Shown piece after piece: positions 16,989 through 17,065 of a stretch of 38,841 nucleotides of DNA. The stretch lies in the IMG/VR virus record IMGVR_UViG_2541047816_000002, one strand, 5' to 3'. Within the stretch, counting starts at the first letter, position 1. The number at the start of each line of letters is the position of its first letter. This DNA comes from a virus. Taxonomy: Duplodnaviria; Heunggongvirae; Uroviricota; Caudoviricetes. The notes under the pieces are model-generated. The model saw only the letters and a list, made by a program, of their open reading frames with translations, searched no databases and was not told the origin of the DNA. Position numbers and translations under genes: made by a program.

Positions 16989-17065
16989 CCGCCATTAGCT
17001 CATCAGGAAAGAGCGCCAGCCTTCGAAGCTGGTTGCGCGGAGTTCGGGTCCCCGAAGGCGGTCCA
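16989..17065 (+). tRNA. tRNA-Arg-like (anticodon UCG), degenerate
   Basis: Anticodon arm CCAGC-CTTCGAA-GCTGG and D-arm are good; acceptor has one A-A mismatch, T-stem one A-C mismatch, T-loop TTCGGGT lacks A58; encoded CCA. Confidence 0.5.

Follow-up and report, generated by a model that had tools for sequence, protein, structure and literature searches.

Three tRNA genes lie side by side in the window, a 38,841-nucleotide stretch of DNA that is an Escherichia lambdoid prophage, and the middle one raises the question of whether it still makes a working tRNA. A first-pass annotation had seen in it a degenerate Arg-UCG-like gene and had left two explanations standing, a pseudo-tRNA and a phage-adapted tRNA. 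The comparisons described here lead us to regard it as a damaged argN allele, probably non-functional or strongly hypomorphic. The cluster is one that we take to be ileZ-argN-argO of phage 933W. These names reportedly originate with Plunkett et al. 1999, J Bacteriol 181:1767. The features of the locus are as follows.

16868-16873 and 16891-16896, + strand: putative sigma-70 promoter, TTGCAG and TATTAT with a 17-nt spacer, identified by eye and by comparison
16906-16981, + strand: first gene (ileZ), tRNA-Ile2, anticodon CAU (ARAGORN; Rfam, 72.5 bits; PGAP, as tRNA-Ile)
16989-17065, + strand: middle gene, tRNA-Arg(UCG), degenerate argN allele (ARAGORN, Rfam, PGAP)
16994 x 17056, + strand: acceptor mismatch A6xA67 of the middle tRNA (hand reading, RF00005 alignment)
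17023-17025, + strand: anticodon TCG of the middle tRNA
17041 x 17051, + strand: T-stem mismatch A52xC62 of the middle tRNA (hand reading, RF00005 alignment)
17047, + strand: G58 in the T loop UUCGGGU of the middle tRNA (hand reading, RF00005 alignment)
17079-17155, + strand: third gene (argO), tRNA-Arg, anticodon UCU (ARAGORN; Rfam, 70.1 bits)
17170-17195, + strand: terminator-like hairpin GGCTCGC-TTTT-GTGGGCC followed by T8 (terminator scan)

The gene order Ile2(CAU)-Arg(UCG)-Arg(UCU), the short spacers, and the setting in an Escherichia lambdoid prophage are those of the tRNA operon of lambdoid and Stx phages, as is the position, with the Q/methylase region on the 5' side and the lysis (or stx) region on the 3' side. 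Phages 24B, PA44, and Nil3 carry the same block between Q and stx2. At the same locus in E. coli AR_0017, genes for a DUF968 protein, RusA, an antitermination protein, and a frameshifted DNA methyltransferase precede tRNA-Ile/tRNA-Arg/tRNA-Arg, and a DUF6645 protein, a holin, and a lysozyme are encoded on their 3' side. Of 5426 complete E. coli genomes, 3061 have the cluster; a scan of GTDB species representatives found it at 4 loci, in Escherichia only, plus two metagenome bins. It has been seen, with the same middle allele lineage as the window, in an actinobacterial bin named 'uncultured Collinsella sp.' (L128, UQIB01000015.1), most likely through binning contamination by E. coli prophage DNA, and also in a 'Proteobacteria bacterium' MAG (L125).

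The putative promoter ends 9 nt before the first tRNA, and its TTG and TATTAT spacing is kept in 119 loci despite divergent upstream contexts; the 24B record (HM208303) labels the corresponding site 'putative tRNA promoter pT'. A generic promoter scan reported no promoter for the tRNA operon, because the -35 element matches at 3/6 positions only. The terminator-like hairpin, kept in Nil3, 24B, and an Stx2c phage and recorded as a putative terminator in 24B, is the probable end of the operon, and together with the conserved promoter-like element it suggests that the three genes probably form one small transcription unit.

Several other elements of the prophage are worth recording. The DNA methyltransferase gene just upstream of the tRNAs is split into overlapping open reading frames (15809-16483 and 16308-16856, + strand) and is labeled 'DNA-methyltransferase, frameshifted' by PGAP in the identical locus of NZ_CP024886, which suggests that other genes of this prophage are decaying. 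Immediately after the tRNA terminator, in the place that stx occupies in Stx phages, is a tandem pair of STnc100 RNAs (RF02076; 17232-17422 and 17700-17909, + strand, 136 and 161 bits). The anti-sRNAs AgvB and AsxR lie antisense beside STnc100 in related loci, and an Rfam scan of the window found neither at threshold. Further Rfam matches are a sok antitoxin RNA (hok/sok-type module) at 11840-12015 on the + strand and, on the minus strand, 4988-5075, 5100-5176, and 5408-5459 (C4 antisense RNA, isrK, DicF).

tRNA-Ile2 with the anticodon CAU decodes AUA after lysidine modification, and tRNA-Arg with UCU decodes AGA/AGG. ARAGORN confirms both anticodons. The earlier description of the two flanking tRNAs as clean cloverleaves needs a correction for Ile2, which has a non-canonical pair at 27:43. 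In the cmscan alignment this is AxC, at the top of the anticodon stem, in a gene that is still essentially invariant across ~120 loci.

The middle gene is predicted by ARAGORN as a 77-nt tRNA-Arg(UCG), and Rfam and PGAP also accept it. Read by hand, its acceptor stem is CCGCCAU/AAGGCGG, giving C1-G72 and A6xA67; the D arm is GCUC-AUCAGGAAA-GAGC; the anticodon arm is CCAGC-CUUCGAA-GCUGG, with the variable loop UUGCG; and the T arm is CGGAG-UUCGGGU-CCCCG, giving A52xC62 and G58, with discriminator U73 and an encoded CCA. In the RF00005 alignment the D and anticodon stems are intact, exactly two pairs (6:67 and 52:62) are non-canonical, leaving the acceptor and T stems not fully paired, and the consensus A of UUCgAaUCC is unmatched, with G at 17047. 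The A-A acceptor mismatch, the A-C T-stem mismatch, and the G at the normally invariant A58 that were noticed at first pass are all borne out by this alignment. The C1 start, listed with them as a sign of degeneration, is not one, since C1-G72 and U73 occur in every intact allele and are lineage features rather than damage.

Other parts of the tRNA are unharmed. U8, A14, G18G19, A21, U33, G53, U54, U55, C56, and C61 are kept, and G53-C61 and the anticodon loop CUUCGAA are unimpaired. E. coli ArgRS recognizes A20, C35, and G or U36, with A or G at discriminator 73; the middle tRNA has A20, C35, and G36, and its U73 is shared with the intact alleles. It scores 43.4 bits against RF00005, above the gathering score of 29 (E = 2.7e-08 locally and 3.9e-06 across the whole window). 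One reading of these features is that the gene is a working tRNA-Arg(UCG), perhaps a weaker one, in which the mismatches and G58 are tolerated and which supplements CGA/CGG decoding. The margin over the Rfam threshold, the agreement of ARAGORN and PGAP, and the intact anticodon loop, CCA, G18G19, and A20 and other ArgRS determinants speak for it and count against a pseudogene, and on the evidence as a whole we consider a working tRNA unlikely. G at tRNA position 58 cannot form a pair of the U54-A58 type. The T loop and the elbow depend on that pair, of the trans Watson-Crick/Hoogsteen kind, as a key contact (PMC7912444), which argues against a working tRNA here.

Comparison with other copies of the cluster places the window allele within a series. 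The outer tRNAs are identical to those of Nil3, 24B, and an Stx2c phage, and nearly all differences from these phages fall in the middle gene. A pattern scan of IMG/VR, anchored only in the first tRNA (3' end) and the third (5' end), recovered 120 loci with 47 distinct middle-slot sequences, distributed as follows.

42/120 loci: defect-free 77-nt cloverleaf
5/120 loci: single-defect middle slot
about 30/120 loci: window lineage, with A6xA67, A52xC62, and G58 always together
9/120 loci: heavily mutated, with C1xA72, C2xA71, C31xA39, G19C, U54C, and others
34/120 loci: indel forms, an 80-nt class with a scrambled anticodon arm and a 66-nt deletion class

The RF00005 scores fall along the same series, from 54.8-58.4 bits for intact alleles through 54.0 for a G58-only allele, 50.4 for the Nil3 allele (A52xC62 only), and 43.4 for the window allele to 42.9 when C32U is added and 37.5 with C32U and G50A; the heavily mutated copies reach 26.4 and 22.2 bits, under the gathering score of 29, and neither the 80-nt nor the 66-nt indel class gives an RF00005 match. 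The defects of the window allele thus cost about 11-15 bits relative to intact alleles. It had been proposed that a high-scoring covariance-model hit would overturn the idea of degeneracy, and the outcome is divided: the gene passes the Rfam threshold but stands well below its own intact alleles. The small loss in the G58-only allele is consistent with a tolerated G58 in a working tRNA. The neighbors keep their scores, Ile2 with 72.5 bits in 17 of 18 scored loci and 70.3 in the remaining one, and Arg-UCU with 65.8-70.1 bits in the loci of that set and 63-70 bits when every related locus is counted.

Relative to L070, the intact allele closest to it, the window allele has the changes G52A, A58G, U63C, and U67A, and three of these four changes are structurally damaging, as is expected of the disabling substitutions of a pseudogene. 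G58 is common to the window lineage and the heavily mutated lineage, and it also occurs in most copies of the 80-nt form and in a few alleles that are intact in other respects. The suggestion that A58G was the first inactivating change was set aside as conjecture, with an A58-bearing 80-nt copy in existence (L131) and recombination rife. Some copies of the window lineage carry additional changes (C32U, G50A, CCA to UCA, or G10U), and clearly damaging ones are rare, at 1-3 loci each.

The window allele is widespread. The exact 97 nt comprising the tRNA and both spacers are present in 230 complete E. coli records, among them that of the type strain DSM 30083 / ATCC 11775, and in ~10 IMG/VR contigs, and O157:H7 strains typically have a variant with one mismatch; the label that PGAP gives the window allele is always tRNA-Arg, with no pseudogene flag. 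This abundance bears on two alternatives. The chance that the gene arose from faulty sequencing or assembly, or is a fortuitous tRNA-like sequence, is negligible: a low MFE z-score (-0.45) is all that points that way, error is ruled out by the identical copies in 230 independent records, and the homology to intact alleles is clear. For a working tRNA, the same abundance is favorable, with 230 exact copies, the three defects fixed, and most copies free of further decay, and these points, together with the finding that most diversity within the lineage comes from C32U and little from damaging extras, also weigh against the pseudogene reading.

The indel forms have features of their own. The 80-nt form is the commonest single middle-slot form in IMG/VR (~27 of 120 loci) and combines the usual acceptor, D, and T stems with a 13-nt 'anticodon loop' (L131 407-486, NZ_CP148746; also L103 and L104). 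PGAP calls it tRNA-Val, and ARAGORN and Rfam report nothing; the tRNA-Val label is probably an annotation artifact. In some prophages, such as that of E. coli MS20654 (L130 408-484, NZ_CP082083), the same acceptor and D-arm scaffold carries a different anticodon arm with UUU, which both PGAP and ARAGORN call tRNA-Lys and which scores 41.3 bits, with C33 and A51xC63. Its anticodon stem differs from that of the Arg allele by two compensatory changes, C-G to U-A at 27:43 and G-C to A-U at 30:40, and it is followed by tRNA-Thr(UGU) and tRNA-Gly(UCC). The 66-nt class of Stx2c phages appears to have arisen from this UUU version by deletion.

The variation of intact alleles is of a different kind from that of defective ones. 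The 20 distinct A58 alleles have 99.8% of stem cells paired and vary, in a structure-neutral way, at positions 17, 20a, 44, 46, 57, and 60 and at two pairs that tolerate G-U, 27:43 and 51:63, whereas in the 16 distinct G58 alleles 89.6% of stem cells are paired and six pairs are broken in subsets; neither set contains compensatory double changes. A stem or invariant-site change comparable to those of the window allele is found in 0 of 42 defect-free loci and 0 of 20 A58 alleles, rare singletons aside, and this stands against tolerance of such changes in a working gene. In the intact group the tRNA has a pi of 0.043, 5-9 times less than the spacer (0.23) and the downstream flank (0.39), indicating purifying selection on a working gene. 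In the window lineage the middle gene has a pi of 0.0136, compared with 0.004-0.005 for its neighbors and 0.017 for the downstream 150 nt, with six variable sites of which C32U, probably neutral, is dominant, a pattern that may hint at relaxed constraint. Across 122 clusters (the IMG/VR loci, the window, and reference loci) the un-anchored 51 nt of Ile2 are identical in 115 (pi 0.0033), and Arg(UCU) has a pi of 0.0245 with mostly pair-preserving changes.

Folding predictions point the same way as the alignment, and they are to be read with the caveat that MFE folding serves poorly for tRNAs: both neighbor tRNAs and the intact 24B allele also fail to adopt a cloverleaf in silico. The canonical cloverleaf is predicted at -20.0 kcal/mol for the window allele and at -28.3 to -31.3 kcal/mol for intact alleles, a loss of stability of 8-11 kcal/mol. 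The canonical T stem has a predicted probability of at most 0.01 in the window allele and 0.84 in the nearest intact allele, and in its place the MFE structure contains the following element.

17043-17047 and 17052-17056, + strand: predicted alternative T-arm hairpin, UUCGG and CCGAA around the loop GUCC

Its pairs U54-A67, U55-A66, C56-G65, G57-C64, and G58-C63 have predicted probabilities of 0.56-0.89. The weakened cloverleaf and the dominance of this hairpin in the predicted ensemble argue against a working tRNA. The MFE z-score itself was discarded as a test of tRNA quality, being unreliable when good neighbors also fail to fold as cloverleaves.

The hairpin could also be taken to mean that the gene has been exapted as a tRNA-derived structured RNA, its changes having been selected to form this hairpin or to retain an acceptor/T minihelix, and that it acts as a processing or spacer module for its two neighbors or, against host nucleases that attack tRNAs, as a decoy or a source of tRNA fragments, a possibility that we rate as very improbable. 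All four substitutions act in this direction, with G52A weakening the canonical T stem and A58G, U63C, and U67A adding to or strengthening the hairpin 54-58/63-67; the 80-nt and the 66-nt class both keep the acceptor stem and 3' CCA, the 66-nt class having a compensated C7-G66 pair, and the same scaffold also occurs with the UUU anticodon arm. However, the hairpin was picked after the fact from the MFE fold, no U tract follows it, no known function attaches to it, and no alternative structure shows covariation. The six variable sites of the lineage all lie outside it, but this outcome has an estimated chance probability of about 30%. A minihelix serving as an RNase P spacer is not supported: the acceptor stem is kept in the indel classes but pairs 1:72 and 2:71 are broken in the heavily mutated lineage, so that a minihelix is not universal. 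Also very improbable is the wider proposal that the middle slot, whose acceptor/D scaffold bears other anticodon arms elsewhere, is not simply decaying but is a fast-evolving tRNA-derived module providing a stability or processing signal for its rare-codon neighbors or a decoy for nucleases that attack tRNAs.

Returning to the damaged-allele reading, the codon supply of the host offers a setting for the contrast between the outer and middle genes. E. coli reads CGA with tRNA-Arg(ICG) and CGG with tRNA-Arg(CCG), and AUA and AGA/AGG rely on scarce tRNAs. This host redundancy for CGA/CGG fits a pattern in which the outer genes are conserved and the middle one has been lost repeatedly. There would be codons for a UCG tRNA to read in the prophage, since the 34 long open reading frames of the window contain, per 1000 codons, 14.0 CGG and 5.9 CGA, a usage that also favors a working tRNA; an intact copy would be useful, not essential. 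The middle gene appears dispensable, as other lineages have lost the tRNA and stx2c is retained beside a deleted copy, and both observations count against a working tRNA in the window: in the Stx2c phage LC727881 (L132 20283-21513), the 66-nt deletion allele lies directly upstream of stx2c.

Allele state is correlated with stx. In the IMG/VR sample (L004-L123), defect-free middle alleles have stx downstream at 10 loci and no stx at 23, and defective alleles have stx at 1 locus and no stx at 53, the no-stx category being loci with at least 1.5 kb of downstream sequence (Fisher p 1.9e-4, with kinship of the loci ignored). Counted the other way, a defect-free middle tRNA accompanies 10 of 11 stx loci and 23 of 76 loci without stx. 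The proposal that stx needs an intact argN was ruled out by the deletion allele upstream of stx2c and by the few CGA/CGG codons in stx2A (5, against 15 AUA and 8 AGA/AGG). Intact argN therefore goes along with Stx2a-type phages, and toxin expression does not require it.

Taken together, the observations favor the pseudo-tRNA side of the original alternative: the three deviations are absent from intact Stx2a-type alleles, both bit score and predicted stability are reduced, and sister lineages have decayed further. The phage-adapted side finds no support, as the 24B/933W-type version of the gene forms a canonical cloverleaf in which A58, A6-U67, and G52-C62 are all present. We therefore propose a course of events that is in part inferred from the predicted structures. 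The operon would be transcribed from its own promoter to the terminator after the third gene, and the transcript would probably be cut into tRNAs by host enzymes. In the middle tRNA, G52A and U67A open two pairs, one in the T stem and one in the acceptor stem, and A58G removes the adenine of the U54-A58 pair that organizes the T loop and elbow. With these pairs opened and A58 lost, the RNA is predicted to fold poorly into the L shape and would be a weak substrate for processing, ArgRS, and EF-Tu, so that misfolding would abolish or strongly reduce its function. It would then add little or nothing to CGA/CGG decoding already covered by host tRNAs, and the allele would persist as a passenger between two neighbors under strong purifying selection.

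RefSeq gives this allele a normal tRNA-Arg label in E. coli genomes by the hundreds, O157:H7 relatives among them; the label overstates the probable role of the gene, and little CGA/CGG decoding capacity should probably be credited to it. Selection is unequal among the genes of this small operon: the tRNAs for AUA and AGA/AGG are almost unchanged, and the UCG tRNA is intact in only about one-third of the sampled clusters. If prophages retain tRNA genes only for codons that the host pool serves too sparsely, such a contrast would be expected, and the operon is a tidy and unsurprising example of it.

Phage tRNAs have also been proposed to evade tRNA-targeting defenses through changes in the anticodon loop. 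A role in compensating for codon usage has been proposed as well (Bailly-Bechet et al. 2007, as cited in PMC7946995). The window gene resembles codon-compensating phage tRNAs in belonging to a cluster cognate to host-rare or phage-enriched codons, but it differs from adapted phage tRNAs in that its deviations lie in the T arm and acceptor stem and spare the anticodon loop, destabilize the fold instead of changing recognition, and are absent from intact phage alleles. Two tRNA-Arg genes and one tRNA-Met gene have been described near stx2a (PMC7946995). A search of the literature on ileZ/argN/argO, Stx-phage tRNAs, and prophage tRNA pseudogenes returned no account of how the middle tRNA decays or is expressed, and two comparative Stx-phage papers leave tRNAs unmentioned.

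The closest relative is argN of the Stx2 phage 933W and its relatives (24B, HM208303; Nil3, AM051322; PA44, KP682388), which occupies the same slot between the same tRNAs and shares the promoter-like and terminator elements, the C1-G72/U73 scaffold, the D arm, the CUUCGAA anticodon arm, and CCA. The window allele departs from it in having A6xA67, A52xC62, and G58 where 24B has A6-U67, G52-C62, and A58 (43.4 versus 54.8 bits), and the phages differ in that no stx lies downstream in the window, where two STnc100 copies and a DUF6645 gene are found instead. The middle gene is therefore no new kind of element, but a degenerate allele of an already known phage tRNA gene. Like tRNA pseudogenes or decaying tRNA paralogs in prophages, it is a homolog of a functional gene with probably disabling changes at an invariant tertiary site and in two stems, within a graded series that ends in deletions and sub-threshold scores; unlike them, it is recognized by three independent detectors and retains an intact anticodon loop and CCA.
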